Origin: Isurus oxyrinchus
Lineage: Eukaryota
Direction: 5' to 3'
Assembly: GCA_026770705.1 (NCBI GenBank)
Contig: JANJGN010000036.1
Coordinates: 806,001 to 870,000 of the forward strand
DNA: 64,000 nucleotides
Numbering within the stretch: position 1 is the stretch's first letter; every line of letters starts with the position of its first letter. Position numbers and translations under genes: made by a program. This document shows positions 1 through 64,000 of this stretch, piece by piece. The notes under the pieces are model-generated. The model was not told the origin of the DNA, searched no databases, and saw nothing but the letters and a program-made list of their open reading frames with translations.

Positions 1-259
1 ACTGCAAGATAACACTGTTTACATGCCCTTTAACACTGTCACAATAGATGAAAACATAGATAGGTTTTTAACTGAATATGTAAATATTGAGATTGATAAG
101 TTTTTGTTGGGTGAAGGGTATTATGTATTAGGGAACGAAGGCAAGGAGTTTAGGTTAAGATACAGATCTGTAAAGAACTTATTGGAAGGCAGAATATGCT
201 TGAAGGACTGAATGGCCTGATGATGGCGTGGCTCACGATAATTGTGTTTTCTCTTACAG

Positions 260-304
260 ACTCCTTTTTCTTGATTGGTGTTTAATGCGGATCCCGCAGT
301 CTGA
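260..304 (+). pseudogene. Terminal cytoplasmic exon of an upstream type-A paralogue (A0), degenerate
   Basis: ttacag|ACT CCT TTT TCT TGA TTG GTG TTT AAT GCG GAT CCC GCA GTC TGA aligns codon for codon with A1 THYARLAFKDDPRL* and with A2 cyt2, but has an internal stop and Tyr>Phe. Confidence 0.7.
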
Positions 305-724
305 TTTCAAACAATATTGGGAGCTTAAGTTCTGCTTCCGGGCTATGATACGTAGTGCAAAGTTTCCTCTGTTATGTTCTTTTTGGAAGAAAGCCTGGAG
401 GTGTGACCATTTCCAAGAGACAGCCATCACCAAAATTCTATTCCCGGCTTAATTCATGTTTGTTAATAATAATGAGCAAAGCAGCCCGCTGATTCATCAC
501 CTAGTGTGGAGTCTTCAAGTCTGACACAGCAGACTCCATTTCAAGTCCTATTTGACTCCAGGGAATTTTAGCGTTCTGTTCAGTTTCGATGTCTTTTTGC
601 TTTCTTGTGGTAATGTTTTTAAATTCATTGTGGATCTTGGCACACCGCGTGAGCAGGAAAGGGCGAATCAGTGTCCAAATTAGCAATCCATTAAACACGG
701 TTTGAAACCCTAGCATTGAATTTG

Positions 725-2563
725 AATGCTGTTTCATGCTCTCGTCTGCACCTGGAAAATTTTATTAATTTTGCTTCAAATTTTCTCCCCTCCATCATTT
801 TCACATGGACTATCTCTGAAACTTCCCTTCCCTTCCTTGACCTCTCTTTCTCAGTTTCTGGTGATCAACTGTGCACCAATATCCATTACAAGCCTACCGA
901 CTCCCACAGCTACCTTGACCACAGCTCCACACACCCCACTTCCTGTAAGGACTCCATCCCATTCTCTCAGTTCCTTGGCCTCCGTCACATCTGTTCTGAT
1001 GATGCCACTTCCTCTAACATGTCCTCCTTCTTCCTTAACCAAGGTTTTCCACCCATGGTCGTTGACAGGGCTCTCAACCGTGTCCGGCCCATCTCCCATG
1101 CTTCCACCTTCACACCTTGTTTTCCCTCCCAGAAACATGATAGGGTCCCGCTTGTCCTCACTTATCACCCCACCAGCCTCCGCATTCAAAGGTTCATCCT
1201 CCATCATTTTCGCTAACTCCAGCATGATGACACCACCAAACATAACTTCCCTTCAGCCCCCGTAGCATTCCGTAGGGATCGCTCCCTCCGGGACACCCTG
1301 GTCCACGCCTCCATCACCCCCTACTCCTCAACCCCATCCTGTGGCACCACCCCATGCCCACGCAAAAGATGCAACACCTGCCCCTTCACTTCCTCTCTCC
1401 TCACCGTCCAAGGACCCAAACATTCCTTTCAAGTGAAGCAGCATTTCACTTGCATTTCCCCCAACTTAGTCTACTGCATTCGTTGCTCCCAATGTGGTCT
1501 CCTCTACATTGGAGAGACCAAACGTAAACTGGGCGACCGCTTTGCAAAACACCTGCGGTCTGTCCACAAGAATGACCCAAAGCTCCCTGTCGCTTGCCAT
1601 TTTAACACTCCACCCTGCTCTCTTGCCCACATGTCTGTCCTTGGCTTGCTGCATTGTTCCAGTGAAGCCCAACGCAAACTGGAGGAACAACACCTCATCT
1701 TCCGTCTAGGCACTTTACAGACTTCTGGACTGAATATTGAATTCAACAACTTTAGGTCGTGAGCTCCCTCCCCCATCCCCACCCCCTTTCTGTTTCCCAC
1801 TTTCTTTTTTTCCAATAAATTATAAAGATTTTCCTTTTCCCACCAATTTCCATTATTAAAAAAAACACCCGCTCTAGAGCTATACCTTGAGTGCCCTACC
1901 ATCCATTCTTAATTAGCACATTTGTTTAGATAATATCACCAACTTCAACTTTAACACCTATGTGTTCTATTGTACTATTGTCGTTGACATCTTTTGATGA
2001 TCTGCTTCTATCACTGCTTGTTTGCCCCTACAACCACACCCCCCATCTCTCTCTCTCTCTCTATCTCTCCGCCCCCCAACACACACACCTTAAACCAGCT
2101 TATATTTCAACTCTTTCTTGGACTCGAACTCAAGTTCTGTCAAAGAGTCATGAGGACTCGAAACATCAACTCCTTTCTTCTCCGCCGATGCTGCCAGACC
2201 TGCTGAGTTTTTCCAGGTAATTCTGTTTTTATCTGTACCTTGCTTGTCCTGTTTTCTATCTTTAATTAGCACATTTCTTTAAGTAATATCACCACTTTCA
2301 ACACCTCTTTGTCCTTTTGTCTGTGACATCGTTTAGTTGCCTCCACCTATCACTGGCCCGCTATCCAGCTCTCTTTTCCCAAACCCCCCACCCTTAAGCA
2401 GTTTATGTTTCACCCCTTTATTTTTCCTTAGTTCTGTTGAAGAGTCATGCGGACTTGAAACATTAACCGTGTGCCCTTCCACAGATGCTGCCAGACCTGC
2501 TGAGTCTTTCAGGTATTTTTGTTTTTGTTTTAGGTTTCAGCATCCACAGTTTTTTGCTTTTAT
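725..2563 (+). mobile_element. Penelope-like retroelement, 5'-truncated (RT C-terminus, GIY-YIG endonuclease, two 3' pseudo-LTR units) with an 11-bp TSD
   Basis: LPFLDL..YKPTDSHSYLD (716-1216) and NLVYCIRCSQCGLLYIGET..HFN..GLNIEF (1433-1762). TSD cattgaatttg at 714-724 and 2564-2574; the paralogous site at 62811 is empty. Confidence 0.9.
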
Positions 2564-5500
2564 CATTGAATTTGGGAGTTCATGCTGTTTGATCCCTTAG
2601 TGCTGATGTGCTCAGTGAATCTACAATGGCAGGTTACAGGACACATTTCTAGACTGGATGTGTGCGGTTTAAATGTGGGAACCATTCTACAAGAATGACG
2701 CCAGAACTGAGAGGTCATGATATCATTGACGATTGAACAGGCTGTGCCTCTTTTTTCCACAAAAGAGAAGACTAGGGGGTGACCTGCTAGCGTTGAGGCT
2801 GAGAGGGAATTTTTCTATTTGCAGGTAGAGCTAACGAAAAGACTATGAACACTAGATATGCACAAATAATTCTAATCGGTAATTCAGGAATTCTCCCAGG
2901 AGAACGAAAGAATGCAGAACTCGCAACCACAGGTGGAGGTAAATAGCTGAAATACTGTTTTCCAGTGGGAAGCTGGATAAATAAAACATGAATTAAGCAA
3001 TAGGAGGATATGTTGATGGGTTGTTGAGGCTGTGGGAGGAGGATCGTGTGGAGTAGAGACACCAGCAGAGAGAAGAGCATCTGAATGGTCTGTTTCTGCT
3101 CTAAAAATAATTTTGAATTTTAGAAAGTAGAAAACATGAGAAGTGACTGAAATCTGTTTCCTCTGAAAGTTTGCATCAATAGCAGAATTTCTTCTTCGTG
3201 CTAAAATAAAAGGTTAACGTTAAGCAGAATTGAAAATACATTTCATCGAGGTGATCTTAGATGTTTGCGTCACGCCTTCAATATTATAATCATTAAAAAT
3301 TAATGTTTGGGTCACTGCTTTTTAAGATACATGTTACAGCCTGAACAAATGTTATTCACTGAGCGAGCGAATTCCTAGAGGGATAAATGTCTCACTGGTC
3401 CTTTATTTTTCTGTTTTGAAAAAGTGGGGAAACTTTAACAATTCCGATATTAAAAGATTTATGAACAAGAAGAAAAAAAAACTTAATCACAAATGTTTAA
3501 AATTACACGGCTGAAGCTGTCTTACAATGTATTCCCCCGGAGAAAACCTCGCTCTTCATAATACACAATTAAACTATTTGGAAACAGGTCCCTTTTGGAG
3601 TTTTAACCATGAAACTCCAGTGACGTTACCCAAGGCAAATGCTGCTGCTGCTTTAGTACAGTGTCTGACACGACGTCACGCTCTCTCCCAGTCTGCTCTG
3701 GAAACCCGAAGGAAGTTCAGGAACAGACTCTTACTTGAAAGCAAAGACTTCCTTGTCTTGAATTCGGACGCCTGCTTCAAATTCGACATTTCTCTCAGCA
3801 CAGATCTGGTCTCAGGACATTTCCCCCACACAGCCACCTCAACTCAACGAAGCATTTCCCTTAATTATCAACTTCTCCCTTTTTTCCATGGGCTCCAATG
3901 TCTTAAGCACGCCTTTGATTTCCAATTTTCCAAACTAAAAAATCCTCCCTATTGCCTCCACTTCCGGGTCAAATAAAAATTAATAACCTCCCCTTGTTTA
4001 CTTATGAAATATTAGCAGCTGAAAAGACAATCTCTTTTCTAACAGCTAATTTAAAAAAAACATATTTATTTATAATCCCAACTCCACCTTAGGGTCTAAT
4101 TGCAAATGCATGCATTCAGCACCATTATATTTCATCTCTAAGTTCCCACAGACAATCTGTTTTCACTAACATTCCCTAGTTTAATTACCAATGGACACAC
4201 AGACACACGCACACACATCTTTCTTTATAGAATTCAACCATTTTCCAAAAATATGTAAAAACAACATACATCTTCCCGTACACAACTCCACCCATTGACC
4301 TTGTTTCCAGATCCCTTAATACATGTGCAAAACAAAATGCATTATAGACTAGCTTCAACAGCTTTCTGAGGGAGAGAGACCCGAATCCCACTTTTCCTTC
4401 CACAGTACCTCTTGCACCAAAAAACACTACACTCACGGTAAATGTCTGACATGTAGATTTAAAGTTGAACATAAACCAAAAGATACTGTGTAAATGTGAA
4501 ATTAATTCATCACAAGTGCCCTGAATCACTGCCCGTGTGCTCCTGGTTTGTTCGAATTCAGTAATTGATAGAACGCATCATATTTCAGAGAGAGAAACCC
4601 ACAACTAACAGCATCTCAATCCAGAGCAGATATTGCCGGCTCAGCAGAAATTACAGCTTTATCCAGATGTCATTTAATTATCATTTAATTATCAATCAAT
4701 ACAAAACACTGGTGCATCGTCATAATCGAGGAATAATTTATTTTATTTACATACAGATATTTGCCAAGAAGTTAACACCCTGTCAGTGACTGGAGTTACA
4801 GAATCAGCAGAAAAAGTCCAGAGAAACTCCGTTGTCTCTGCTCAATGTTTGTTTCATACATGAGTTACACGATAATAGTGGAATATCCTTAACAATACTC
4901 AAAACAATTGAGAAATTTAGCAAAACGAGTCAGTCTTTTTGAACTCTAGCGGGTGCACTGGGAAAGATAACTGTTTCGTGGGACTCCCATTGGTTCCATG
5001 TTTATTTCCACCAGGCTGTGGGTTGTTGGGCAAATCCTGTCGCCTCCATAACTCATCTGCGACCCGCCTTCTTTTTTGATCTTTTATCCAATGCAGCCAT
5101 GTCGAGGAAGGCGTGGAGAGGTCCGCATTGTACTGGGAGACATATTAAACATTAACAGCGAAAATTAGTCAAAAAATAGATAAGGTTACCCACTCCTGCA
5201 ACCGCGTTTCATAGAACCATAGAATGATAGAGCAAAGCAAGAGATAATTCCGCCCACTGTTCCTGTGCCAGTCTTTGAAAGAGCTGTGTAAATCGCCCTA
5301 CTGTCCCCTTTTCTGTCCCCATATCGCTGGCCTTATTTTCCACTTCCACTTTTTTCTAATTCCTTCTTGACTGTCCCTATTAAATCTGCTTCCTTTGCTC
5401 CCTAGATCAATTTGCAGGGATTTTTTGCTTTATTTGTATGTGTAAGAATTGTTTGAACTGATGTTTTGTAACAGCAGCAAAATTAGGAAAGCAACTGGAA

Positions 5501-9720: not shown

Positions 9721-12039
9721 TGCCATTGAGAATGTCTCGGTGAGCCAATTTTAAAAACGACTTTCAGGCCGCTCCTCAGTCTTGTCTTTAGAAAAAAGAG
9801 ACCTAGCCTGCTCAGTCATTTCTGTTAGTTTAACCTTTCAGCTCTGTTATCAGCCTTGTAAATCTTTTTTGCAACCTCTCTCGTCTCTCGATATTCTTTT
9901 TATAAAATAGAGTCCAGAAATGTACACTTTGTTCAGGCGTTGGCTGAACAAGGTTGTATGGCCCAATATGACTCCTTTGCTATTCACTTATATTCCTCAG
10001 CAAATATGTCCCGGTGCTGATTTACATTTTTCCAGTTAAGATCGCAGGCACTTGCACCAAAAGGAACTTGCTTTAGAATTATTCAGAGAGTGAATGAATC
10101 ATCCGTTTGATCCCCGTCAGAAACAGACCAGATCCAAGGCCAAGATAAAGGCGAAATACTGCGGTCACTGGAAATCTGAAATAAATGCAGAAAAGGCTGG
10201 AAGAACTCAGCAGATTTGCCAGCTTCTGTGCAGAGAGAGAAACTGAGAAACTTGACACATCCAGTTGGGCTTTTCCAGCATTTTCTATTTCTAGAGATGC
10301 TGCCAGAACCGATACGTTTACCCAGCGTTTAATATTTTTATTTCGGTGCCCGAAGCCTCTCTTTATCGGGTTTGTATTTCGATCCTGAGCGGAGATCACA
10401 CTCCCGCACTCTGCTGTTGAGCGAGCGACTTCCCTGTAAATAACACGGGCAGAAGAGGGTCACATAACTCAGCGGTGATCGAGGGGAGTCTTTGGGGCGT
10501 TTTACTTTTAACGGGAAGCAGACTATGTTTGTTCCGTTGTTTTGCATTCCCTGCTCCGAAACATTCCACTTAGAAGCGTTTCTCCACTGGGGAATAACAG
10601 CAGACATGATTTATAATAAAACACCACAATGTGGCCGCGATTATAAACCCTTGATACGTAACGAGATTTTTCCCAGTCTGCATTCTGTAAGTATCCTCGG
10701 GAATAAAGATTTCCGATCTGCGCCATTCCCAGCGGAATATCCCAGGTTTCCCTAAAGAGCCGCGTGAGGGTTTAATTGAAAACAATTCTCAGGGGGAGTT
10801 CGGCAGTTGCCGGGCAGAGAGCGTCTCCGGGAATCCATAATGAGAAAATCCTTCAAGGGAGTGAAACTGAGGACAGTGGGTGAAAAGCTAATACGAATCT
10901 GATAAAACCGCACACTTCCCTTTGTCTTTTGTTCAAAGTCAGAGTTTTCTAATTTATTTGTATTCGCTCATGGGATTTGAGCGTCGCAAACTGGACCAGC
11001 ATTTATTGCCCTCCATTACTGCCCCTTGGGATGGTGGTGAGTCACTTCCTTCAACACCAGAAGGCCATGTGCTGTCGATGCACACAAAGTGCTGTTAGGG
11101 AACGAGTTCCAGGAATTTTGACCCGGAGACTTTGAAGGATCGGGGATATATTTCCAAGTCAGGATAATATTTGTCTTGAGGGGTGGTGCCCACATGTCCC
11201 CTCTGCCCTTGTCCTTCTAGACGGAGACAGGCTTGTCTCCGCTGTCTCTGCTGTCTCTGTATAGATAGTGCAAACTTTAATCTCTCTGAATCTCTGAGGA
11301 AGCGAGTGCATCATTTGAGAATACTATAGGGGGTCAGTTTTATTTTTAAATACCAGGCATCGAAGATAAAAGTGACTCGGTGTCAGGTCGATAAGGGCAC
11401 TGTAAATGAGTTGAATGTACACCAGCCTGTTCTCTGTTCAGTTGAATCTAACCTAGACGGCAAAGCCTCTTCTGTCTGCGGTTTAACATTGAGTCCAATG
11501 CAAGCGGTTCTGTACATGACGAACCTCAACTGTAAAAACAGGACAGCCACAGAGAGCTTCTGGATGGAAAATAATTTTTCATCTGAAGCAAAAACCGGTC
11601 ACAATCTCGGCCAGCGATTTACGTCAACCGATGTGGTTTGCAAAGCCCCCGAATGGGCTGTGAGCGAAGCGTCTTTCTGATACTCGCAGCAAACAGCCGC
11701 GGTCACAACCAAGGCGCCTCTTTTCTGCCCAGCCTCGCTCTCTGCTGCAAGGTTCACTGACTCGCTTCTTTGTAATTCAAGATCAAGCATTTCTGCAGAA
11801 CAGTTCAGGTGCTCAGTAAGGCGCAACACTGTCTGCTCATTTCTGAACACATTCTGACAGCACTTCATTCCATCACGTTAGTCACATCGAGATGAATGTA
11901 TCTCGCTCTTCTCTCCCAACTTCCGTTCCTCAGCATTCTCCTGAAGATTCGCTGACATGGGTTCCCGCGGAGCCTTGCAGGTAATTTGCAGCACGGATTT
12001 GCTGCTTTGACTTTATAATTGGCTCAGGTTTCCCATGAG

Positions 12040-12340
12040 AGAATCCCATAAAAGAATGAATTGATCCAGCAGCAGTTTCTAAGTAATTTTTCTCGGTTGG
12101 GAAGGGGCATTTTGATCCTTTGCTACAACCGCCACAATTTCCGGGGTCTACTCTTCATCCTCATTCGGATTTGGATTAAGTAAAGCGGTTGGTCAGGTGA
12201 GAATTGATGTTTAACAGCGACATCTCAGCGGTGGTTAATATGCATCTTTCTATAATATTAATTGGAGTTTCTTGTTTCAGATAACTGAGTGAATTTCACC
12301 CACAAAGAAAAGCGAGGAGCTGAATCATTTTTTTAAAGTT
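12040..12340 (+). pseudogene. Inverted remnant of type-B TM exon and first tail exon (B3)
   Basis: cagcagtttctaag..TCTACTCTTCATCCTCATTCGGATTTGGATT..AAGCGG..TCAG|gtgag (to 12196) and gtttcag|..CACAAAGAAAAGCGAGGAGCTGAATCAT match the reverse complement of B1 7330-7645. Confidence 0.7.
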
Positions 12341-42250: not shown

Positions 42251-42274
42251 CAAAATATATATAAATCTAATATA

Positions 42275-42310
<36 letters not shown>

Positions 42311-45680: not shown

Positions 45681-48600
45681 ATGAACTTCCTCGGTGTGTG
45701 TGCATTGTCCCATCTCTTGCAGGGTGAGATATCCTAGCATGTTCAGATAGAGTGGAGAAGAGTTTGGATAGAGTAAATAAGGAGAAACAGTTTCCACTGG
45801 CAGGAGGGTCGGTAACCAGGGGGACACAGATTGAAGAGAATCGGCAATAGAACCAGAGGGGGAGATGAGATTCTATGTTAACTAAGCGAGTTGTTGTGAT
45901 CTGGAAGGCGCTGCCTGAGAAAGCGGTAGAAGCAGATTCAATCGGAACTTTCAAAAGGGAAGTTGGATAAATACTTGAAAGGGAAACAGTTGCACAGGTA
46001 TGCGGGAAGGAGAGGGTTGAGAGCGGGGGCTAACTGGATAAATATCTCAAAGTTCTAGCACTTTGAAGGGCCGAATGACCTTTGCCTGCGCTGTGCGGTG
46101 CTATAAGATGTAATTCAGTTTTCAAGTCCGATATAAAAATAGAGCGAATATAGTTAACAACGTGGGAAATGTTTATTCATCAGGAACAATAAATGGAATT
46201 AATCCGAAATGGATCCTCTTTTGGAATGAAAGATGTGAGTCGGCTCCATTGAAATTATTGGCAATTGAGAAGAGCACAGAGTTTCGAGCAGATTATTAGA
46301 GTGAGTTATAATCTCTGCAACAAAATAAAATGCTCAAAGTCAGCCGAGAAGAAGAGGAATGAGAGAAAAATAAAACAGTCGGAACATTTCGCTTTCAATC
46401 AGTCCTTTTAAGTTATTAACTTCACAGAGTTCTGATTTGTGTACCGCAGTGATTAAATTAGATTTACGGGTGAATGGACTCGTACTGTGCCCTTGGAAAG
46501 ACAGGGGTAAACTATCACAAACAACCGGTTCCGTGCGACTTTTCGATCTGGAGTCTTTTTTAAAAAGGATTTTGCTTCCTCCATATCGTGGTGCCGTCGC
46601 CAGAGTCCGGCTTTAGGAGCGAGGGTGTGCAGGTGCGGGGTGACGGGCTGCTCCATAATCTGAGGTAACTCTTGTTTTTTCTCTCTTTCTCAGTTATTGT
46701 GTCTCAGCCTTTCTTGTCCCAGTCTCCGCCGGTTCAGATACTCCCAGCGGGCAGTCGTGCTGAACTGAGCTGCCACACGGAGAGCTCATTAGTTCATTAC
46801 GCCTTCTGGTACAGAGAGTTGGGGCGAAACGACATGAAGCAGATTTACACAGCGGCCAAGTACCTCCCAGCAGCGGGGAGGTTTTCCAGCGAGATTTCTG
46901 ACAAAGCGGGTAACTATTCACTGCTCATTGCGGATACCCGGAGAAATGATTCTGGAATGTATTACTGTGCAATCCGCAATTACCTGAACAGGGCCTTAAT
47001 ATTCGGAAATGGCTCCCAGTTAGTGATTACAGGTAAATTTCATCAATATTCCTTTGCATTGCGTATTTCTACAGCAATTAAAATTGGTTTCAGCTGTTAA
47101 TGGGGTTTCTGTTTCATTTACTAAATTTAGAGGGCTCCCCGACCATATTCCTCCTCACCCCGCCGGAGGATGAGATTGCTTCGATGGAAAGTGTCCCGTT
47201 GTTGTGTTTGATCAGAGGTTTATCCCCCGGTCCCTTTCCCGTCCGCTGGAATGTTTCCGTGTGGGATATCGAAGGACAGGCAGATTCCGGGACAATTGAG
47301 ACAGACGGGACTTACACTATCAGGAGTTACGCCACCCTCTCGGTGGAAACCTGGAGATCGGGCGCTGCCTGTACTTGCACAGTCCAAATCAACTCCAGTG
47401 AAACTCACCTCAGTGCAAGTGTCTCATCTCAGAGAGGTAGGTATTAACAGTGACGGTTTAACAGTCTGTTCAATGCTGATGGTAGACATTGTCAACTTTG
47501 TAGATTAGAATTGTCCATCTTTCCGTGTGTGTCCATTTGTCATCATTTTATCATTGACTTTTCACTGATCTCTCTATCTTTCAGACTTTAGCTTTCTGAA
47601 AGTTTTACTCTATCTGTCCTCTCTACCCCAGAGAGTTATGGATGTTCATTCACTGGGATAGATTTTTTCACATTAAGGGAATACAGGATGTGGACACGCC
47701 GGAAATATGAAGCTGCAGTATAAGATTAGCCTTTGTCTTATTTAATGGTACACCAACTTTGAGGGACCGAATGGTCTCTTGCGCCCATTTCTTCTGTTGG
47801 TGTGTCTGGTTAGGCATATTGACACTGTTCCATGCCACTGGATGACTTGTCAGTGTGTAAAATTGAAAAGTGTGATTACATTCTCAGTGCACCAAATTGT
47901 CTCATAATGCCATTATACAGTTATCTATTCACCTCTACCTACTTTATATGCGCAATATTTCTGGCTGTCTCACTTAAACGGTCAGTTAAAAGATACCATA
48001 TTTATCTCTTTGGCTACCTGTTTATCTGTCTATCCATCTCTCTCCCTCTCTCCCTCTCTAACTCTCTTTCTCTCTCTCTCTCTCTGTGTCAATCATTATA
48101 TTTCTTTCCTGGTGCCGTTTAATATGTCTACCCCTTCTGTCTGCCTGTCCGACTCTCTCTCTGTTTCTCTCTCTCTGATCTCCTCTCTCCTTTTTCTGCC
48201 TTTCTCTGCTTCTGTATCTCTCAGTTTGTCACTTTATATCTGTCTCATTCACGGTCTCTCTTGTTTTATTTATTGATCTCTCCATTTGTCTAGCTCACTC
48301 TCATGGGATTATCTTGTTCATTTCTGCCATTGGTAAATGGTGCGGTATGAGACATCAAGCCCATTTACCAATCTGCTTATCTCTCTCTTTCTATCCTCTC
48401 TCTCTCTTTCTCTCTCTCTCTGTCTTTCCCTCTCTGTCCTCGTGCACGATTCACTGAAAGCTTGTATGCAGGTACAGCAGGAAATTAGGAAGGCAAATGG
48501 AACTTTGGCAGTTATTGCTAAAGCAATAGACTGTAAAACAGGGAAGTGTTGTTGCAGCTGTAAAAGACATTGCTGAGACCGAACTTGGAGTACTGTGCAC

Positions 48601-51009: not shown

Positions 51010-54000
51010 TTGGAGAGGAAAGAGGGGGAGAGCTCACAGTCTGTTTCCCGAAAATGACGTGTTGCAGTAAGCTTCCATTGTTGGGCGGGAAGGTCCGAAA
51101 CTCCAAACGACGCTAACTAAGGCGCATTATCGGCACAATTTTGTGATGTCGCCCAAAGCGGGAACTGAGTTACCTCATAATGTTCGCTTTCCAAACAATG
51201 AAATATGACTTGCAGTTTCAGCCAGCTCTCCAAGTTTCTCTTATCTGGTATTAGTGTTTATTATTGCATTCTGCATCTTTATTCAGTATGTCAACAAGAT
51301 ATCATTCAAACAGGTTTAACAATGTATCTGTGCTCGAGTTACGTACATAAAACCATTAAATAACAATGACAGCTCCATGCTTTGTTTTTTTTTATCATTC
51401 AGGCCAGATACGCTCAGGGTATCTCTGAGGCCAATATACAAATACATTTATAGAGGGAATGTTGCAGGACAGAAGCAGGGCTAAGGGCCGACAGGTATTG
51501 GATGGCGAATTAGGCTGCATTGTTATGAAAGCTGCAGTGTTAGTGAACCCTGAGTCCTCACTGGTTGTGTCCTGGGAGGGAATAATGTTACTTTTACTCT
51601 TGAAAAAAAATATTTACAATTCTGCCGCCCTTTTGCTAATGCAGTTGAGCCCATTTTACCGACTAAAATCACTGGTTCGAAGATACTTACAGCACAGGAG
51701 GAGGTAATTCGGCCCGTCACGCCTGTGCCTGCTTTTTGGATATGCACTTTAGTCTAATAATTCGCAAACATGAATACAATTCCCTCCTCACATTCAAATG
51801 TCAGTCTAACGCTTGAGTAAATTTGAGGTAATGTTTCACTGAGGTGATATAATCTATTTCCATGACATCTTTTATTTCATCAACGTTAAAAAGCTGGCCT
51901 GGAATCCGATGCAGTACTGATCAATGGATATCTGGTTTGCAGAGTGTCTTCTGATTCCTCTTCGTAGCAGATAGAAACATTCCCAAATTAATACTGACTT
52001 ATTCTGCTGTAAAGACTCATTGTGCACAGATATTTCGAGAGTATTTCTAGACACTTATTACAAGGTGAATGTGGAAAAAGTCATTCTGCTAAACACAGTT
52101 CAACCGTCCTTCAGGTTTCTGTCATCCTCAACCTGCAGGAAAACAACTGCTTCCTTAAAAAATATCAGAGAGCTTTGCAAGAGCATCCGTATACTACCTA
52201 CCCACAGAGCCATTCCTGGTGCTGATCATTCTGCGTGTCATCGACCTCCATGGATCAGTCCTCGTAATATCTTGAACTATTAATTCCAGGGGCGCATTGG
52301 AGCCAATCAGTCCCTCTGGTTGGATTTGGCATTCGATCTGGTCATGGCTGAATTTAGGAAATTGAGATAGTGTATGTACGTTCTCTGAGTGTTTGTGTTT
52401 TTTAATTATAAGGTACATCTTTCAGTTTAAGTTTTATTGCTATATTTTTTCTATTTTTCGATTAAAATGTGAAACCTGGGATCTAGTTTAATTTTTGAAT
52501 GGAGGCAGCAGGACAAAAGCTGTGTTTGTTTTCTGGTGCTTGTAATGACGTTTATGACTCTTGAAGAGAGCGTAAAACAACCACAAGAGTAGAAAAACGG
52601 TGTTGTTGCCGAGCAATAGGGGCGCAGGGAGGGAGTCTCTCACACAGAGGAGCACACATATACAAACACACACGCACACACACATATACAAAGAACACAT
52701 AGAGAGAGAGAGAGAGAGAGAGAGCAGTTTGAGTTCACTTGAAAGCAGCTGCCAACGGGAGGATGGAGATCAGAGATAGCAAGTTGTAATCTGAAGTTGA
52801 AGCCAAGACTCCAGATAAGCAGTCTACTGGGAGACGGGACTGAAGAGAACAGGTTTCCCAAAAGAACCGACAGGTTCCAAGCCCAAGGAGTGAGACAAAA
52901 ACGGGGCAAATTCACAAAGATACGTTCCAGTTAAACGAAAGACAGGGACCGGGTGTAAAATTGATTGGATATGCGGACATTCACACTTTACCATGCAAAG
53001 CTCCCTGGGGATTCACTGAAAGAAGCTTTGCTCAAGCTGCACCTAAGCCTCATCTCCTCAAGTATAAAAAAGGGCAGATGCCAGTGAGGGAGTAACACCA
53101 TTAGGCACTCTCTCTGCTACCACCAGAGAAGGTGGTTCATGAACTGAATGATCCAATTCAGATGCAAGTTTGAGTATTCTTAAAATGAATCATTACTCTG
53201 CTCGGAGAGTATTTGACAGGAAATAGTTAATGAGTCCTTCAGAAACAAAATTAAACTGGTTTGAAATGTATAATAACGGATTCAAATATTTTAATGATGG
53301 ATTTGTGAACTTTAGCCGTTTATCACACTCTGACAGTATTCACTGGTATAATTTATTCTTCAAAATAAATCAGATAGAAGGTGTTATAAATGTGTTGCCC
53401 AAAATATTGTCTTAAATGTTAGACGTGGATTATTCGGCGAGTGAATGTGATTTACTCATATTCCACCGATGTTGGATATCTGGATGATTCAGGATATCCA
53501 AACATGCAGGTTAATGGAGAGGAGGCTGAATGGTTTGCATCGGGTCACGGAATTGTTGGCTCCGGTTTCGAGGTTATAACTATCAGGAAAGATTGAACAG
53601 GCCGGGTGCTCCTTTCTCTAGGAAAGTGGAGGCTGAGGGGATGACCTCATAGAGGTCTTCAAAATTAAAAACATGTTCGATACGGTAGACATAAAGAAGA
53701 TATTCCCAACTGTGGGAGAGAGACCAGAACTAGGGACATCCAATATAACAAAATCACCAATAAATCCAATCAGGAATGCAGGAGAGCCATTTTTACTCCT
53801 ACGTTGCGGAGAATGTGAAACTCGCTCGCACAGGGCGTGGTCGAAGTGCATCACCGGGATGCATTTAAGGAGGAATCAGTAATAACACACGAGGTGTGAG
53901 GGATAGAGGACATGTTGATATTGTGTGATGAAGGGGCGATAGGCGCAAGATCCTGTGCAGCAGAAACAACCTCACAGAGCAGATGGCCGATTCTCCACTG

Positions 54001-56539
54001 ATCCACAGGAATAGATTTGACACAAAGAGGCAGGCGGGAAGGCAATTGTGGGTGAAGATGTTATTAAAATAATAGCGAAACATGCTAGTTTCTTTTTTAA
54101 ATCTGGCGTGTTTTTGCTGCAATACGAATAAATTCATGTTGTCTCGGTGAATTAAACAGAACACTCCGAATGAGGGACATTTCCACTCTGCCCACGCGAA
54201 TGTCATAAGCGGTAACGTGGTTGAATTCAGCACCACTGTCTTTTGTCTCCAGTTTGCACCAGCCTGGACTGTGCACCGCCTGTGACGCGTGTTTACCACG
54301 ATCTGCAGCGTGTTGCCCTTTGCAGGCAGAGCCGTGTGTGGTCTTCTAACCTGTAAACAGGAAATCCTCAGCTAAAACGTACACAAGCTGATTTTTCCAG
54401 TGCGCTATTTTTAAATGTTGCACGTAATTTTCGCAAAATGTGCTATTTTCACCAGGTCTTCCGAACCCGGGGCCGAGAACAGAGGCACCCGAGCGAAGAG
54501 ATGGTGAAAATCTCACAGAAGCTGGCCCGGGATCGGAGACCGAGAGCTTCTTAATACCCTGTGCGTTGCTGCGTCTGTTTGCAGGTTTGTGCCTTCTTCA
54601 CTCCTCATTCAGGATGGTTTAAGACTGTTATAGTCAGCGAAGTAGAAAATTATCCCCATGCCTATATTCTGTAATATTAGCTTCATGTTGAAAAACCGAG
54701 TTATGTCCTCCTGATGCAAATTGATCACATACCAACATTCTCCAATCTATCGGATGGGATGTTCAAACGAGATCCTTTGTTTGCCTCTTTCGGGTGCAAA
54801 ACGTCCCAGGGCCACTATTAGCAGAGGAACGGAGGGGGCGGCGGAGCTCCCCCCGTGTCCCTGGGGCCAACACTTATCCTCCAACCAACATAATTAAAAC
54901 ACGAACTGGTTCATCATCACTTTGTTATTTGTGGGTCCTGATGTGCGCAGTTAAAGCTGCCGCGTTTCCTACATAACAACAGAGACTAACTTCAAAGAAA
55001 CTCCTTCATTGCTACTGATGCGCCTCTTTCTCCCTCTTGCTCCTGTTATTGTTTCAAATTTAACCCTCAATGTTTGACTTCGTTAGCATTTATTAACGAG
55101 TGGATGGTCTATTATATATTTTACTGTTATAGCCGATTCGCCATGGCAAGTGTTTACTCCTTCCCTGCCAAAACAGTATCCATAGTGTTGATTTTGTACC
55201 TCTGAGTTATTGCACCTCAGGCAGCTTTGTGCCAGGCTCTGGAAGGTCAGAGTCTGTCGCTCGGAAGTGCCTACAAGATGCATTGTGACACGGCTTAGTT
55301 GGCGGTGGTGGGGTTGGGGCTTTGGGTTTGCTGCTGGTGCGGTGCGGGGGGAGGTCCACTGGTGTAAGCGGAACCATCGCAGACATCTGCAAATGGTTCC
55401 ACATCTACGCCATGACAGAATGCATCTCTCGAGCCGGGATATATTCGGAAGAAGGTAACCAGAATCCACACGTTATTCTCTCAATATTGCACGTGTCCAG
55501 GCCCCTGATTCGGTCATGTATTACAGTGCAGCTAAGGAGCTCAGTGGTATGTCCTTTACGTTTGGAAATGGTTCAAAGTTGCTTATCACAGGCATAAATT
55601 CGGATAGCTTAACACATTGCACCATCAATAACCAGGAAGTTATGGTCGATGGTGATGGAATCTTAAGGCCCGGCTCTGCAAACTTCTCCAATAATCGATC
55701 ATTTAACTCCGCCTCCAGCTGAAATTCTCTCGTCGTAAAGTGTCCCTTCGGTCTGTTTGGTGAAGACTGTGGGCTTCGAATCCTTTTCCGTTCACTGGAA
55801 TATTTCCGGGAGGGGAACCGAGGGACAGAGCGATTCCAGGAAAATTGAGCCGGATGGTACATGCACCATGAGGAGTTTCATAATTCCCTGCATGGAAACG
55901 TGAAGCAGCAGAGCTCTCTGTACTTGCGCTGTGCCAATCAACTCCAGTGAAAATCATTCAAGTGAAAGTGTCTCAGCTCAGTGAAGTAGATATTAACAGT
56001 TACCTTGTACATTTTATTTGCGGCCAATTTGTTACCAATAGTTATTCGTATATCAGAACTCCCACTTTCTATGTGTCCATGTATCATTTTCTGAGCCCTT
56101 ACCCTCTTCGTATATATCTCATCGTTTTAGTGTTTAGCTTTCTAAATTTTAAGTCCAACTGTATAGTTGGCATAAAAGGGTACGGAGGGAGATAAAATAT
56201 TTTGACATGTCAATGACTAAATACATCCCAATTTCCTATTTACTATTTTCTCTCTCGATTGCTCTAAGTCATGACCTGTTTTCCATCGAGCTTCCAGCAC
56301 AGAAACAGAGCCTTCAGCCCTTAGAATCGGCGCTGGTGTTTCTGCTCCATGCGAACATCCTCCAAACCCATCTTCATCTCAGCCCACCTACATACCCTTC
56401 TGTTCATTTCTCTCTCATGTCCTTATACAGCGAGACCCATCAACACATCGCAGCATGGATGATCAAGGGGAACATAACACCGTGGTACAGGGTGCCATTC
56501 AAGTGGGGGTGGGGGGGGGGAGCGGGGAGGATGGAGTGA

Positions 56540-59500
56540 TAAATTAGAAATCCAGCTGTAATCCGGGACAGTATAATTAGGGGAATGGATATTGTTCCCA
56601 GTAGCCAGGATGGAGAGTCCTGAAGGCTGTGTTGCCTACCTGGTGCCAGGGTTAAGGGTGTCTCATCTCAACTAATCTGGGCTGCAGTCAAACTTGGAGT
56701 GGAGGCGGAAAGATCCAGTTGTCGTGTACTAGCTAAGTACCAATGATATAGATCGAATGAGGAAAGCAGTTCTGCTGAGAGAATACGAGCAGCTAGGGGC
56801 TAAATCAAAAAGCAGGATCAAAAAGGTAATAATCTCTGGACTACTACCTGAGCCACGAGCTAATTGGCGCAGAGTCAATAAGGTTAAAGAGGTAAATGCG
56901 TGGCTCAAAGATTGGTGTGGCTTTAGTTGGTTTGCATTCATGTGTCATTGGCACCAGTACTGGGGAAAGAGGGAGCTATTATGTTCGGACAGTCTCCACT
57001 TGAATTTTGCTGTTACCAGTGTCCTGGCGAATCACATAGCTCCGGTTGTAGATAGGGCTTTAAACTAAATAGGGAGGGGGGAGGTTCAGTTACATGGATA
57101 TAGAAAAAATCAAAGTTTAAGGAAAGTGTAAGAGTGCAGGTTAGTGACGAGGCTGATTGTTACCAAAAAGTCAAGCGAAGGGACAAAAAGTGTGAATGAC
57201 AAATTGCACCAAAGAATCATATAAGGGTAGGGAAAATTGACAATAAGTCAAATTTAAAGGCTTTGTATCTGAATGCGTGGAGCATTCAGAATAAAACTAA
57301 TGAGTTAACATCAGAAATGCAGATAAATAGATACGATCTGATGGTGATTACTGAGACATGGTTATAGGGAAAGCAGGTTTGGGAGTTGAATATCCAAGGG
57401 CACTCAGTGTTTTGGTAGGATAGGCAGAAAGGAAAATGAAGTGTTGTATCTTTGTTAGTAAAGGAAGAGATCAGTGCTATAGTGAGGAATGGTGTAGGCA
57501 CTGAAGGGCAAGATATGGAATCAGTCCGGGTAGAAATAAGAAATAGCAAGGGTAGGAAACCCTGGTGGCAGTAATCTATAGGTCCCCAAAAAGTATTCGT
57601 GCAGTAGGGCAAAGTGCAAACCAGGAAATACTGGGAGCATGTGATAAAGGCAAGGCAATAATCGTGGTTGATATTAATATGCATATAGACTGGCCTAATC
57701 AAATGGGCAAGGTAGTTTCGAGGGAGATTTCATAGAGTGTATTAGAGACTGTTTCTTGGAGCAATATGTTGTGAAAGCAACCAGGAAGCAGGCTATTCTG
57801 GGTTTGGTTTTGTGTAATGAGATGGGATTAATTAATAATCTCATAGTAAAGAGTGATCATAGCACGCTAGAATTTCAAGTTCAGTTTGAGAGCGAAAAAC
57901 GTGAGTCACACACTAGTGTCCTGGAGTTCAACAAAGGTAACTGCATAGGCATGACGACAGATTTGGCCCTAGTGGACTGAGGAAGAAACTACAATGAAGG
58001 ACAGTTGATGAAAAGTGGCAGATATATAACGAGATATTCAATTCCTTCCAAGCAAAATATATTACAAAAAGGAAGAAAGATGTTAAGAGGGGGGAAAGCA
58101 CTCATGGCAAAACAAGGAGGCTAAAGATAACATAAAGGCAAAAACTAAGGCATACCAATTTGCAAAGGTCAGTGGCAGGCTGGAAGATTTTAAACATCAA
58201 CAAAGGGTTACTAAAAAAGTATAATAAAAAGAGCAAAGGTAAATTATGAAATAAAACTAGAGCAAAATGTATAAACTGATAGCAAAAGCTTCGACAACTA
58301 TATAAAAGGAAAGGCATTAGCTAAATTGAATGTTGGCCCCTCCGATGATGAGATTCGGGAGTTAATAGTGGGGAATGCAGAAATGGCAAAGACGCTTAAT
58401 CAACATTTTGCCTCTGTTTTCACGGTGGAGGACACTCATACCACCGCAATGGGAACAGGTAGTGCAGAGGGTATAGAGAACGAAGAACTTAGAACAATCA
58501 ACATCACTAGAGAAAAATTACTGAGCAAACTATTGGGATTAAAAGATGACAAGTCCCCTGGACCTGATGGCCTACATCCCAGTGTCTTAAAGGAAGTGGC
58601 AACGGAGATAATGGAGGCATTGGGTATATTATTCCAACATTCTCTGGATTCTGTAAAGGTTCCAGTGGATTGAAAAAAAATGCGACTATAATGCCCTTAT
58701 TCGGAAACGTTGTGGGAGGGGTGGGGGGGGGGGGGTGATAGAGCGGAGAAGCATAAAGTACAGAACTGTAGACCAGTTAGTTTAACGTCTGTTGTTGGAA
58801 AATTGTTGGAATCCATTATTAAGGACGTAGTAATGGGGCATTTGGAAAGTCAAAATGCAATCCATTAGAGTCAGCATGGTTTTATGAAGAGTAACTCGTG
58901 TTTGACGAATTTGCCAGAGTTCTTTGAAGATGTGACAAGCAAGGTGGATAATGGATATCTTGTACAAAAACAGAATTACCTGGAAAAACTCAGCAGGTCT
59001 GGCAGCATCGGCGGAGAAGAAAAGAGTTGACGTTTCGAGGACTCGAAACATCAACTCTGTTCTTCTCCGCTGATGCTGCCAGATCTGCTGAGTTTTTCCA
59101 GGTAATTCTGTTTTTGTTTTGGATTTCCAGCATCCGCAGTTTTCTTTGTTTTTATATCAATGGATATCTTGTATATGTTATACGTCTGGGATTCCAGAAG
59201 GCCTTTGATAAGGTGCCGCACAAAAGATTAGTACACAAGATAAGATCACACGGAGGTAGGGATAATATATTAGCTTGGTTGGAGGATTGGCTTACGAACA
59301 GAAAGCAGAGAGCCGGGTCAAATGGGTCTTTTTCTGGATGGCAAGCTGTAACTAGTAGAGTGCGTGAGGGTTCGGTCCTTGGGCCCCGACTGTTTACAAA
59401 CTAATGACTTGGATTCACGGATAGAAGGTACGATGGCTAAATTTGCAGATGACACCAAAATAGGTGGGAAAGTAAGTTGCAATGAAGAAATAAGAAATTT

Positions 59501-60365
59501 GCAAATGTATATGGATAGGTTCGGTGAATGGGCCAAAAGTTGGCAAATAGAGTTTAACGTGGATAATTGTGAGGTTGTCCATTTTGGTCGGAACAATACA
59601 AAGGCGATGTATTCTTTAAATAGAGAGAAATTTCGCAATGCTGCAGTGCAGAGGGATCCGGGTGTCCTCGTGCATGATTCACTGAAAGCTTGTTTGCAGG
59701 TAATAAGGAAGACAAATTGAGTTTTGGCATTTATTGCCACAGGAATAGAATACAAAAATAGGGAAGTATTGTTCCAACCGTACAAGGCATTGGTGAGACC
59801 GGAAGTGGAGTATTGTGCACAGTTCTGGTCCACTGACTTGGGAAAGGATGTAATATTATTGGAGACACTTCAGAGGATGTTCACGAGATTATTTCCAGAG
59901 ATGCGGGGCTGGCCTTATGAAGAGAGATTGAACAGTTTAGGTTTATACTTGCTAGAGTTTAGATGGACGAGAGGAGACCAAATAGAGGCATATAAGCTTC
60001 TAAACTGAATAGACAAAGTAGAGGTGGAGCGGATGTTTCCCCTTGTAGGACATTCTAGAACGAGAGGCCATAGTTTTAGGCTAAGCGGTGGCAGATTTAA
60101 ATCAGAGATGAGGAGGAATTACTTTTCTCAAAGGGTCATGAATCTTGGGAATTCACTACCTCGTTGTTCCATTGGTGCCAGAACGCTGAATAATTATAGG
60201 GAGGAGATAGACAGCTTTTAATTAGCCACAGGTTGAAAGGTTATGGGGGAAGAGGGCGGGAAATTGGAGTTGACGCTGAAATGAGATCAGCCATGATCGT
60301 ATTGAATGGCGGGGCAGACTCCAGGGGCTGAATTGCCCACTCCTGCTTTTAGTTGTTATGTTCTG
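56540..60365 (+). mobile_element. Near full-length degenerate CR1 LINE (ORF1 SGNH esterase; ORF2 APE endonuclease and RT) in the A2 C1-TM intron
   Basis: ORF1: GDSIIRG, CLPGARV, STNDI, VIISGLLP, DSLHLN. ORF2: LYLNAWSIQNK, ITETWL, KSPGPDGLHP, FQKAFDKVPH, GSVLGP, FADDTKIG, RTRGH, RRNYFSQRV, followed by the CR1 3' tail. Confidence 0.92.
58965..59158. mobile_element. Palindromic Penelope-tail-derived insertion in the CR1 with a 15-bp TSD
   Basis: Near-perfect inverted arms (caaaaacagaattacctggaaaaactcagc..gttgacgtttcgag|gactcgaaacatcaac..gctgagtttttccaggtaattctgtttttg). TSD aatggatatcttgta at 58950-58964 and 59159-59173. Confidence 0.88.
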
Positions 60366-61319
60366 TAATTCACCTCAACCTCTCCCTGTGGGAACGAGCT
60401 TCACATTCTGCCTGCTGGCTGGATAAAGAGGTTTCTCCTGAATTCTCGAATGGATTTATTGGTGACTCTCTGGTATTGACGTCTTCTAGTTCTGGCCTCC
60501 CCTAAAATATGCTAATACCTTAACTACGCCTGCCCAGAAATCCCTGTCATTGTCTTAATCAGGTCACCCCGCAATCTTCTCCTTTTTTGAAAAATAGAAG
60601 ACAGCCTGTTCAAACTTTCCTCACTGTTATAACATCTCAGTTTGCTGACATTCCAGTAATCATATTTTTTTTGCACCTTCCCCTGTGCTTCTATATTGTT
60701 TTCTATGATATGGAGACCAGAAATATTCACAGGACGCTAAATGTAGTCAAGCTATGTTTTGATACATGTTTAGTATCGCCTTTCTCCTTTTCAATTCTGG
60801 GCCTGTTTTTTTTTATGGCTGTATTAACCTCTGTCATCACTTTGAATGATTTTTGTGTCTATACCTCAGAATCCGCTGCTCCTCTATCCGATTTAAACTC
60901 TTGTTTTCAAGTGAGTGTGTGGCCCAAACCCTGTCACTATGTCTAACCCAAACCCCAATCCTTGTCCTTCCCAGCAAAACAGTCTCTCTCTAACTTTTCA
61001 TCCAAGGCAAAAGAAAGGAATTCACTGGATGAACTTAAGCTACTTAGCCTTTCATGCGTGGCGGACAAACACTTAGTATCAATTACTATACATGAAATTG
61101 GTGAGCATTTCTAAATAGATGGGTTCATTAAGAGCACCGAACACCGATTTGTGAATGTGTAGTCAAGCTTAACACATTTAATAGTGCTTGCTTTTTCAAG
61201 AATGGTCCGAGTGGACAGTTGAAAAGACTTCAGTAGATAAAACCTGTATGGAGTTCACAAGACCTTCATGTTTTATAAATTTACCTATGTCTTCTTCGCC
61301 TGCACCCGATCTTCTTTAT

Positions 61320-61329
61320 ATCTATCAAA

Positions 61330-61380
<51 letters not shown>

Positions 61381-61470
61381 ACTGTCTGTCTATCTATCTT
61401 TCGATGTATCTATCTATCTCTCTCTCTATCGTTATATAGATAATCGATCGAACTATCTACCTATCTATCT
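61320..61470. repeat. (TATC)n microsatellite; also (TA)n at 38763-38795 and 42255-42310, and CA-rich tracts at 21680-21900, 27820-27990 and 28790-28960
   Basis: Direct inspection. Confidence 0.9.
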
Positions 61471-64000
61471 ATGCGTCTCCCCCTCTCTCTATCATTCTCT
61501 CACACGCTGTCTATGTGACTGTCTCTCCATCTAGCCATCCATCTACCTTCAAATTTTTAAATCTGCTTTGCTTACCTAATCATTTTCAAAACTTTATTTT
61601 AATGTGCTTGGTGATGTTGGTGACAGTGACAAGACTAACTTGATTGCCCATTCCGAGCTGCCCCCTGTAGGTGGTGCTGGATCTCCTTGAACCTTGTGCA
61701 AGAGCCAAACGGCTTGGGTTGCAGGATTTGTTCTGAAAATTCTGGGAATGATCCTTGCGGCCATGTGAAGGTGTTGCAAGAAAAGGCAGTCAGGAAGAGA
61801 TTAGAGAGAGACCCTGTAACTCAGTGGCACTCTGAATGCATCCATTAATCACTGGGATTTTGGCACTTTCAGCTGCTTGAATGTCAAATGAGGCCATTTC
61901 GAACAAGTTTAAATTTCACTATCTAACAGGCAACATGAACAGTGATGCGGAAGTGTCACATTCCAGAGCAATGACACAAGGAAAGCCGGTAATGATGGAC
62001 AGAATTGTTTCCTAACATCTGTAAGTACATTTCACTGAATTATAATCTGAGGTTTAAAATTAATGGTTACTGTCATATGTGTCTAGGTGATTTTGCATAG
62101 TGCATACCACAAGATAACAATGTTTAACTGTCCTATAACAATGCGGCAATAGATGAAAATATAGGTAGGAATTCAATTCAATTCAAAATTGAGATTGATA
62201 AGCTTTTGATAGGTAAAGGGGATTTAGTGTTAGGGAACGAAGGAGGGGGATGGGGTTAAAATAAGTATAAGGACGAGGCTTATTGAATGGCAGAAGATGC
62301 TGGATGGGCCTCCTGATGATGGTATGGCTCCGATAGTTGTTTGTGTTTTCTCTTCCAGATTCTTTTTGCTCAGCTGGCGTTTAATGTGGATCCCACAGTC
62401 AGATTGCAAGCAATATTGAGGGCTCAAATTCTGCTTCCGGGCTATGACGCGTGATGGAAAGTTTCATCTGTTGAGTCCTTATTGGAGGAAAGCCTGGAGG
62501 TGTGACCATTTCCAAGAAACAGCCATCGTAAATACTGTTCCCAGCTGAATTCATATTTATCAATAATAACGAGCAATGTGGCCCGCCGATTCTTCACCTA
62601 CTGGACAGTCTTCAAGTCTGACAGAAGAGGCTCTATTTGAGGCCCAATTTGACTGTTAAAAAGTTTAGCTTTCTGTTGAGTCTAGATATGTTTCAATTTT
62701 CTTATGGTAGTGTTTGTAAGTACATTGTGCATCTTTGTGTAGCGCTTGAGCAGGAAAGAGCACATCAGTGTCCACGTTCGCAATGTATTAAACACATTTT
62801 GAAACGCAAGCATTGTATTTGGGAGTTCCAGCTGTTTGATTCCTCAGTGCAGGTGTGCTCATTGGATCTGCAATTGGAGGTTACAGGACAGCCTCATGGT
62901 CCAGATGTGTGCGGTTTAAAAATGGGCACAATGCGACAAGAATCATACCAGAACTGAGAGTTTATGATATCACTGATCAATTCGCCACAGAAGAGAAGAC
63001 TGAGGGGTGACCTGATGGCGATGATCAAAATTATGAAACGATTTCATACGTGGAGACGGAAAGAGAATGTTTCCCTTTGCAGGAAGAGCAGAAGTAAAGG
63101 CCGTGAACATTAGATATTCGCTAATAATTCCAATTGGGAATTCATGAATAATTACTTTCACAGGGGAAAGGAGAGAATGTGGAACTCGCAACCACTGCGA
63201 CTGTTTGTGGAAAATAGCTGAGATGCATTTAAGGGGGAAGTTGGATAAATACATCATGAATAACGGGACTGGAGAATATGTTGATGGGATGTAGAGGGTG
63301 TGGAAGGGGGCTCGTGTGGAGCATAAGCACCAGCAGAGAGCAGAGGGGCTGAATGGCCTGTTTTTGCTCTGAAAATTATTTTGAATTTTGTAAAGTAGAA
63401 AACATGAGAAGTGACTGAAAGCTGTTTGCTCTGAGGAGTTTCCATCCATAAAAGCATTTCTTCTTCACACTAAAATAAATAGTGAAATGTAAAATTGGAA
63501 TTCAAAAGAAGTTTCACCTACATGATCTAATAACTTTGCGTACACCTTCAATATTATAAACATTAAAAAATAAAGTTTGAGACCACTGCTTTTTAAGAAA
63601 CATCTTATGACTTCAACCAATGTTATTTGTTGAGCAAGAAAAATCCCAGAGGGAAATTTGGCTCACTGGTCATGTATATAGTTTTTCTATTTTGAAAAAG
63701 ATGGGAACCCTTTTATGATTCCTATATTAAAACATTTATTAACAAGGAGAAAAAAAACCCTCAATCATACAAGACTAAAATTATAGGGTTGAAGGAGTCT
63801 CACAAAGTATTTTTCCGAAAAATACACTTGCTTTTCAGAACACTCAAGTACACTGTTTGGAAGCAGTGCTCTTATGTAGTTTTAACCGTAAAAATACCGT
63901 AATATTACCCAAGGCAATACTTCTGCTACTTTAGTACAGTATGCCACACGACTTCTCATTCTCTTCCAGTCTGCTGTGGAAATCCAAATGGAGTTCAAAA

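Follow-up and report, generated by a model that had tools for sequence, protein, structure and literature searches.

The PRARP/VJC1 genes combine a single-exon VJ, which carries a J-like segment and no RSS, with a V-C1-TM arrangement and an ITIM/ITSM-like tail; in birds the C1 domain of PRARP is degenerate. The family is further marked by two linked genes, of two lineages across bony vertebrates, by linkage to the MHC/CD1 region and by display on lymphocytes as disulfide-linked homo- or heterodimers. PRARP1/2 were reportedly described by Fu et al. 2019 as a gene pair of the non-rearranging VJ(-C1)-TM type with a tyrosine motif, and Ohta et al. 2019 are said to have described the VJC1 genes of Xenopus. 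KIR, LILR and CHIR are established clusters of paired receptors. PRARP has been placed 'in the MHC' (PMC10751288). According to a paper on UrIg and UrIg2, these have 3 and 9-11 C domains, respectively, and are single paralogues with expression in liver or gill, UrIg2 is linked to rearranging antigen-receptor genes, and the relatives sought for the gene invaded by RAG are of the single-exon VJ-C1 kind (PMC12227049). The V domain of NITR carries a J-like segment (PMC7916673), as do the shark genes described here.

An earlier note on the 64-kb window analysed here predicted that the array of gene pieces in it continues. It does: the window is a slice of a 3.52-Mb shark cluster (contig C36:585,925-4,102,027), whose many further copies bring the count to at least 179 C1 exons of the family, and no more of them lie in the 100 kb on either side of the cluster. 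We consider it probable that these intact and broken copies represent two ancient non-rearranging VJ-C1-TM genes, A and B, which turn over by duplication and loss, likely serve as germline paired immune receptors and most likely belong to PRARP/VJC1. Like PRARP/VJC1, A and B are a pair of non-rearranging VJ(-C1)-TM genes with a tyrosine motif, and their relatives occur among bony fish, amphibians, reptiles and birds. However, PRARP/VJC1 is reportedly a gene pair, whereas the shark cluster runs to about 180 loci, has an arginine-TM subfamily and is interleaved with light-chain-like exons. UrIg and UrIg2 are likewise elasmobranch non-rearranging genes with a single-exon VJ, C1 domains and a split leader (PMC12227049). 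Unlike these, the A/B family has one C1 domain instead of a VJ with at least three, a signalling tail and a high copy number, and those gene ids of its catshark, epaulette-shark and stingray relatives that were searched for are absent from table S1 of that paper.

All eight pieces listed in the earlier note were found in the window, in the order and orientation claimed (Table 1). Its count of seven or more gene relics holds for items, but gene bodies make up just five of these (A0, B1, B2, A1 and A2), the other three being scraps. A1 is indeed the only intact gene, the other four bodies being broken; the V, C1 and TM remnants of A0 sit 0.3-3.0 kb left of the window. Other B genes carry the B3 scrap at the corresponding upstream site (contig positions 737,196, 777,686 and 881,432), so that it reflects one inherited rearrangement rather than a separate gene death. 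The reading of the orphan last exon at 21 kb as the tail of B2 is unsupported, since a duplication joint lies between them and the B2 twin is cut identically. The window end repeats the window start, as had been noticed (5-724 against 62110-62821 at 77%, and 2564-3719 against 62811-63997 at 73%). The B gene predicted past 64 kb is present and intact at the window-equivalent 65.4-72.9 kb, with 8 exons in open frame and splice sites that read AG/GT; none of its exons is covered by contigs from four runs, none of them recorded as RNA.

Table 1. Features of the 64-kb window (positions in the window; B1 and B2, on the minus strand, are given with the higher coordinate first).
Feature	Position	Strand	Remarks
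A0 pseudogene (divergent a-type), last-exon remnant	about 260-304	+	contains a stop; tyrosine no longer present
Penelope-like retroelement remnant in A0/B1 spacer	721-2563	+	GIY-YIG match, E 1.4e-4
B1 pseudogene	9364-5052	-	8 exons, none missing; V has two stops, most of C1 is deleted and the tail tyrosine is gone
B3, inverted half TM exon of B type	12013-12223	+	contains stop
Orphan B last exon, decayed	21006-21116	-	74% best non-twin matches, at TM-arginine B genes
A-type flank	31039-32271	+	piece matching the stretch just upstream of an A leader, joined to A 3' flank; no coding exon
(AT)n repeat at joint of 103-kb tandem duplication	42255-42310		98-99% identity; joint at contig 848.3 kb
B2 pseudogene	43263-42421	-	leader present; V frameshifted and containing stops; C1 truncated after about 100 nt
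A1 whole gene	45681-51009	+	intact; leader-VJ-C1-TM-tyrosine tail
A1 exon 1, split leader	45681-45723	+	
A1 exon 2, single-exon VJ domain, canonical F-G-x-G J motif	46694-47032	+	V-set 5e-11
A1 exon 3, C1-set domain	47131-47436	+	Pfam C1-set 1e-8
A1 exon 4, stalk cysteine and uncharged transmembrane segment	49674-49793	+	
A1 exon 5, cytoplasmic	49930-49988	+	
A1 exon 6, T-x-Y-x-x-L motif (ITIM/ITSM-like) and stop	50965-51009	+	
A2 pseudogene (divergent a-type)	55206-62406	+	broken; LINE remnants between exons
A2 V and C1, with stops	55206-55981	+	
A2 TM	61709-61798	+	
A2 last exon, tyrosine lost	about 62360-62406	+	

The A1 model encodes 303 aa, every intron is GT-AG, and its architecture is that of NCBI gene models from other sharks. 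A1 or its 99% twin is spliced in contigs from 3 studies, with joints at 4 of the 5 introns and a loose end that fits the fifth; the runs are presumed, not recorded, to be RNA.

With one intact body out of five, the window is untypical of the whole cluster, in which 49 of the 130 A and B loci that were modelled count as strictly intact (29/54 A and 20/76 B; a-type genes were modelled only in part, and two short B fragments among the 179 loci were left out of the sequence set). Intact and broken copies alternate along the cluster. The blocks are genes, not dispersed repeats as the note had allowed, and all of the 150 + 150 scored matches fall in this one interval.

Both lineages, A and B, are ancient, and their relatives range from sturgeon to birds. 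The A/B family falls apart from IgH, IgL and TCR in the tree (95/92), from whose outgroups nine candidate rows were removed as misaligned, long-branch, redundant or family members. The A lineage (94/91) and the B lineage (91/93), with supports that fall short of the 95/80 star threshold, each include bony vertebrates, and A and B models stand on shared contigs in five sharks. The bird relatives gave no C1-set Pfam hit. The traits of PRARP/VJC1 found here are the single-exon VJ, the absence of an RSS at its junction, the V-C1-TM order, the tyrosine tail and the two linked lineages. Hence, the shark A/B genes are most likely members of the PRARP/VJC1 family, which we take them to be by these features. 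Among the database entries for the relatives none is named PRARP/VJC1, and the supplement of PMC10751288 does not list their gene ids. On the synteny with the MHC or CD1 regions suggested for checking, the marker searches were uninformative (pentraxin and S100 lie elsewhere than on C36, COPA on a small contig, and PEX19 was unmatched anywhere); 0 of 31 MHC class I matches lie on C36, at odds with the place in the MHC given for PRARP. NCBI automatic names call the relatives 'immunoglobulin light chain-like'; genes of the shark A/B type are thus mislabelled as immunoglobulins in databases.

Such names, together with the light-chain-like fold, would suit germline-joined Ig light chains or rearranged TCR pseudogenes. 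This is extremely improbable and largely refuted by gene structure and trees: the C1 exon is followed by TM and tail exons, the TM is not of the charged TCR type, the V-J junction has no RSS, and the A/B clade is separate from IgL and TCR. No RSS-like site was seen at the V-J junction in 166 loci scanned. Matches elsewhere in 15 of the 166 (shuffles 1.3) were rejected as recombination signals, for they come down to two inherited sites: the V-C intron of the a-type subfamily holds the first, and the second lies at a B acceptor. The split leader, the VJ-C1 fold and the stalk cysteine are shared with TCR alpha/beta and Ig light chains, whereas the unsplit V/J without RSS, the own tyrosine tail and the lack of a conserved TCR charge pattern set the A/B genes apart.

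The stalk cysteine is present in all intact genes (29/29 A, 20/20 B), most of which have an uncharged TM and one tyrosine motif. The tail reads T-L-Y-A-R-L in 19 of 29 A and P-L-Y-A-S-L in 13 of 20 B; in both lineages the motif is single and non-canonical at position -2. A TM arginine (N-x-x-R, activating type) occurs in 19 of 72 B TM exons, in a subfamily without the tail tyrosine that has open L-V-C-TM frames at contig positions 1,686,692 and 3,958,846. As judged from sequence, forms with the tyrosine motif stand beside charged-TM forms without it, as in paired activating/inhibitory receptors. This activating-type subfamily also backs the KIR/NITR/CHIR-like dynamics proposed before. With NITR, KIR, LILR and CHIR the cluster shares birth-and-death organisation and a majority, here putatively inhibitory, with a putatively activating minority; it differs in that the second domain is C1 (Pfam C1-set), not I or C2, and that two ancient chain types stand in head-to-head units.

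SIRP is also similar in its VJ and C1 domains and its paired signalling forms. It is established that the SIRP ectodomain with inhibitory and activating forms has this composition, and the cluster might hold shark SIRP-family receptors reading a CD47-like self marker. We regard this as very unlikely: the A/B genes have a single C1 and a single tyrosine motif, as opposed to two C1 domains and several ITIMs, and they form two lineages with their own tetrapod relatives (in a tree without SIRP sequences). In addition, the lists of the best 60 PDB matches to the V and C1 domains, dominated by antibodies, contain no SIRP chain.

B2 and A1 are arranged head-to-head with their start codons 2.4 kb apart, and the cluster contains 30 such B/A pairs under 6 kb apart. 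These pairs suggest another possibility, that A and B pair obligately into a heterodimer of the TCR or Fab kind, giving lymphocytes a germline combinatorial repertoire and us a living model of the pre-RAG receptor. The light-chain-like fold, TCR-alpha and IgL V among the best PDB matches, the stalk cysteine of both chains, the retention of both lineages across jawed vertebrates and the CDR-focused variation all agree with it. However, both partners are intact in none of the 30 tight pairs, which poorly fits a fixed co-regulated heterodimer. After collapsing of duplicates the deficit of intact genes (3/19 vs 12/26 B families, p = 0.054) is only suggestive. Moreover, A and B each have their own tyrosine tail, and while all 29 intact A genes have the J motif F-G-x-G, the J of all 20 intact B genes is degenerate and without this bulge motif. 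TCR-type charged TM segments are absent in the 29 A and 20 B intact genes, 2 of the A having an acidic residue. We therefore treat the obligate heterodimer as a tentative alternative, on balance not the expected one.

The germline paired receptors that we favour would work as follows. The stalk cysteine would link chains by a disulfide into dimers, either A with B or like with like, whose partners would come from separate units of the cluster because tight head-to-head neighbours are never both intact. Their V domains would bind a varying ligand. Forms with the tyrosine motif would recruit SHP-type phosphatases and inhibit, and arginine-TM forms would couple to an adaptor of the FcR-gamma/CD3-zeta type and activate. 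The cluster genes would thereby likely act as immune brakes plus a few accelerators. Turnover would likely come from unequal crossing-over, the blocks involved being 60-930 kb long and also bearing C exons of light-chain-like type.

Eleven such C exons, the first at C36:1,497,520, lie inside the cluster and repeat together with the blocks; in its first 0.9 Mb, the part holding the window, no light-chain-like match was found. Most twin copies differ by 0.3-1.4% mismatch. Very young duplications account for some of the copies, and assembly duplicates could be among them; the 103-kb duplication whose joint lies in the window may be one. These young blocks, the joint on an (AT)n repeat, the repeating light-chain-like exons and the fact that about two thirds of the loci are broken are what one would expect of mostly neutral drift, with a few dosage-insensitive genes in unstable segmental duplications driven by light-chain miniclusters or repeats and a count inflated by haplotype duplicates. 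Such drift is an unlikely explanation. Collapsing at over 96% identity still leaves 15 A and 13 B intact types, with a median nucleotide identity of 84% and purifying selection on C1 and framework. Two haplotypes alone cannot give families of three and four copies, other sharks and rays also have several paralogues, and the first 0.9 Mb has no light-chain-like match to drive duplication.

Amino-acid change is faster in the CDR-like loops. Over gene-wide dS, dN is 1.36 (1.04-1.72) for CDR1-3 of A, against 0.49 for the framework and 0.39 for C1; in B it is 1.73 (1.14-2.37) for CDR3, 1.03 for CDR1-3 and 0.44 for C1. Local dS lowers the CDR ratios to 1.07 (A) and 0.76 (B), values near 1 that would accord with drift, and the pairwise counts are not independent of each other; the loops may therefore be under relaxed constraint. 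Birth-and-death features are all present, namely duplicates, pseudogenes and subfamilies clustering across species. Subfamilies of this genome group with genes of other sharks (cross-species pairs at 100/99 and 100/97), and this grouping together with the fastest divergence in the CDR-like loops fits birth-and-death. The copy number, the mixture of intact and broken genes and the cross-species subfamilies thus support the rapidly turning-over multigene family that had been inferred from the window.

We note a further-reaching idea, which is rather unlikely: a second germline-encoded VJ-C1 system of sharks, in which dozens of A and B chains would pair combinatorially into TCR-shaped inhibitory and activating receptors, interleaved with rearranging light-chain miniclusters. 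If true, this system would fill the place of the NK-type receptor complex that is missing in cartilaginous fish and would beat UrIg2 as a living stand-in for the two-chain pre-RAG receptor. The interest of the cluster lies in its CDR-focused variation, its activating subfamily and its light-chain-like neighbours, and a megabase VJ-C1 cluster offers candidates that can be tested, both as NK-type receptors of sharks and as stand-ins for the ancestor, built of two chains, of antibodies and TCRs. No such shark cluster is described in the literature searched, the primary PRARP and VJC1 papers being outside that search.

The cluster is flanked by tRNA genes and a zinc-finger array. Of 234 unmasked flank frames, 145 were scanned, and apart from retroelement domains they yielded just one match to a ribosomal protein and a weak one to ZCCHC3. 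Inside the window, copies related to the Penelope-like remnant also occur at 15.8-18.3 kb.

The receptor genes of the window, which spans positions 806,001-870,000 of its contig (C36), belong to a far larger cluster on that contig. Searches with one A C1 exon and one B C1 exon gave scored matches (the best 150 of 759 and the best 150 of 570 candidates, respectively) that all fall within one segment of C36 and merge into at least 179 loci, namely at least 54 A, at least 47 divergent a-type and at least 78 B. This is a lower bound, and relics that lack a C1 exon, B1 and B2 among them, escape the search. No family exons were found in the 100 kb on each side of the cluster. The array continues beyond the window as anticipated from the sequence alone, and the B gene predicted to the right of the window is present and intact, with eight exons and 342 aa. 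The cluster is flanked on the left by tRNA genes and on the right by highly repetitive DNA that contains a C2H2 zinc-finger array.

Within the window, exon-by-exon searches with A1 and an intact B gene as queries recovered every item listed in the earlier note (A0 tail, B1, B3, orphan exon, A flank, B2, A1 and A2). These represent five gene bodies and three scraps, and A1 is indeed the only intact gene. Self-comparison reveals paralogous blocks at 67-77% identity, including the reported repeat of the window start at the window end. A1 has six exons, all GT-AG, and encodes 303 aa with V-set and C1-set domains by Pfam. Four of its five introns are joined at GT..AG in contigs of four runs from three studies, guessed to be RNA, and the fifth has a matching loose end in contigs of such runs; these contigs may stem from an allele or from the twin gene at 99% identity to A1. 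The intron between V and C is very short (102 nt and in frame in 40 of the 54 A loci), and in many A copies it reads through without a stop; its retention could yield a V-linker-C form. Young duplications of local sequence, one of 248 bp (98%) and one of 131 bp (97%), lie within the last introns and 3′ end of A1. Other features of the window are collected below; the 1.5-kb repeat pair has few further copies in the fetched DNA and no Pfam match.

Positions of features in the window and on C36
Feature	Window	C36
A0 tail	start	
Half TM exon (B3)	12 kb	
Tandem array, about nine 84-bp units, 81% identity	13708-14468	
Orphan B last exon	21 kb	
1.5-kb repeat pair, 68% identity	24315-25804; 40744-42251	
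A flank, non-coding	31-32 kb	
Decayed LTR-element remnant (integrase and reverse-transcriptase matches, strong strand skew)	34200-38000	
(AT)n joint of tandem duplication	near 42.3 kb	
V-C intron region (also in paralogues)	46694-47436	
Local duplications in A1	49226-50540; 50159-51251	
tRNA gene cluster (L188-L189)		488-508 kb
Scored C1 matches		585,925-4,102,027
Light-chain-like C exons		1,497,520-3,690,548
N-x-x-R B gene L061		1,686,692
N-x-x-R B gene L172		3,958,846
Repeated zinc-finger region (L194-L200)		4.14-4.21 Mb

Exon models were projected on 177 of the 179 loci. Under a strict definition that requires a start, splice sites, a kept frame and the absence of stops, 29 of 54 A genes are intact, as are 20 of 76 B genes; partial models of the a-type show open V and C frames with an uncharged TM in 10 of 47. 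Thirty B/A pairs are arranged head-to-head less than 6 kb apart, a geometry shared by B2/A1. Only A is intact in 17 of them, only B in 3, neither in 10 and both in none (p = 0.054 for the asymmetry with duplicates collapsed). Thus, if A and B chains pair, the partners likely come from different units of the cluster.

All 49 intact genes keep the stalk cysteine, and a tail tyrosine motif, by our own pattern, is present in 27 of 29 A and 20 of 20 B; none of the 49 has a basic TM residue. A subfamily of B (19 of 72 TM exons) carries N-x-x-R in the TM and in most cases has neither the tyrosine nor two of the tail exons. Among its members, L061 and L172 have open leader-V-C1-TM frames and no tail tyrosine. 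As judged from these motifs, they are candidate activating receptors, and we infer that the family may include both inhibitory and activating forms.

Collapsed at >96% identity, the intact genes form 15 A and 13 B types, with a median of 84% between types. In most of 16 comparisons, twin blocks separated by 64-930 kb show 0.3-1.4% difference; two comparisons give 2.7% and 4.7%. The 103-kb tandem duplication, whose joint lies in the window, may be a true duplication or a duplicated haplotype. In the tree, subfamilies do not cluster by species but join genes of basking shark and catshark, as birth-and-death evolution predicts, which supports the rapid turnover proposed in the earlier note. The dN over gene-wide dS of A is 1.36 (1.04-1.72) in CDR1-3, 0.49 in the framework and 0.39 in C1; that of B is 1.73 in CDR3 and only 1.03 in CDR1-3, and with local dS the A CDR1-3 ratio falls to 1.07. 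This shows amino-acid change focused in the CDR-like loops, that is, relaxed or diversifying evolution, with positive selection not proven.

Other sharks and rays have several copies of relatives with the same architecture (16 A-type and 38 B-type proteins), which automatic annotation names as immunoglobulins. Profile searches extend the family to sturgeon, paddlefish, gar, reedfish, coelacanth, lungfish, caecilian, turtles, lizard and ostrich, and to further birds, whose proteins lack a C1-set hit. The family also appears to be multi-copy in lungfish (P0128-P0196 set) and turtles (P0079 cluster), and its expansions are thus not confined to sharks. The V+C1 tree separates it from IgH, IgL and TCR-like outgroups (SH-aLRT 99; 95/92 in a second tree with nine outgroup rows dropped), and the A and B lineages each include bony-vertebrate members (94/91 and 91/93). 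Structure prediction for a basking-shark A chain (pLDDT 76) gives a fold that matches those of antibody light chains. None of 166 loci has an RSS-like site at the V-J junction.

The genes of this cluster most likely belong to the non-rearranging VJ(-C1)-TM family named PRARP (Fu et al. 2019) or VJC1 (Ohta et al. 2019), and the cluster is a large shark variant of a probably known family. PRARP/VJC1 genes are briefly mentioned in PMC10751288 and PMC11599192, and PMC10751288 places PRARP in the MHC; none of 31 class I matches lies on C36. What the present analysis adds is the cluster-wide census, the asymmetry of pairs and the placement of light-chain-like exons. The latter, so called for their sequence similarity, are 11 C exons inside the cluster, the same 11 from each of two light-chain queries, at 45-48% identity and ranking over the remaining C-domain matches. 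Nine of them precede an open a-type gene by 32-40 kb.
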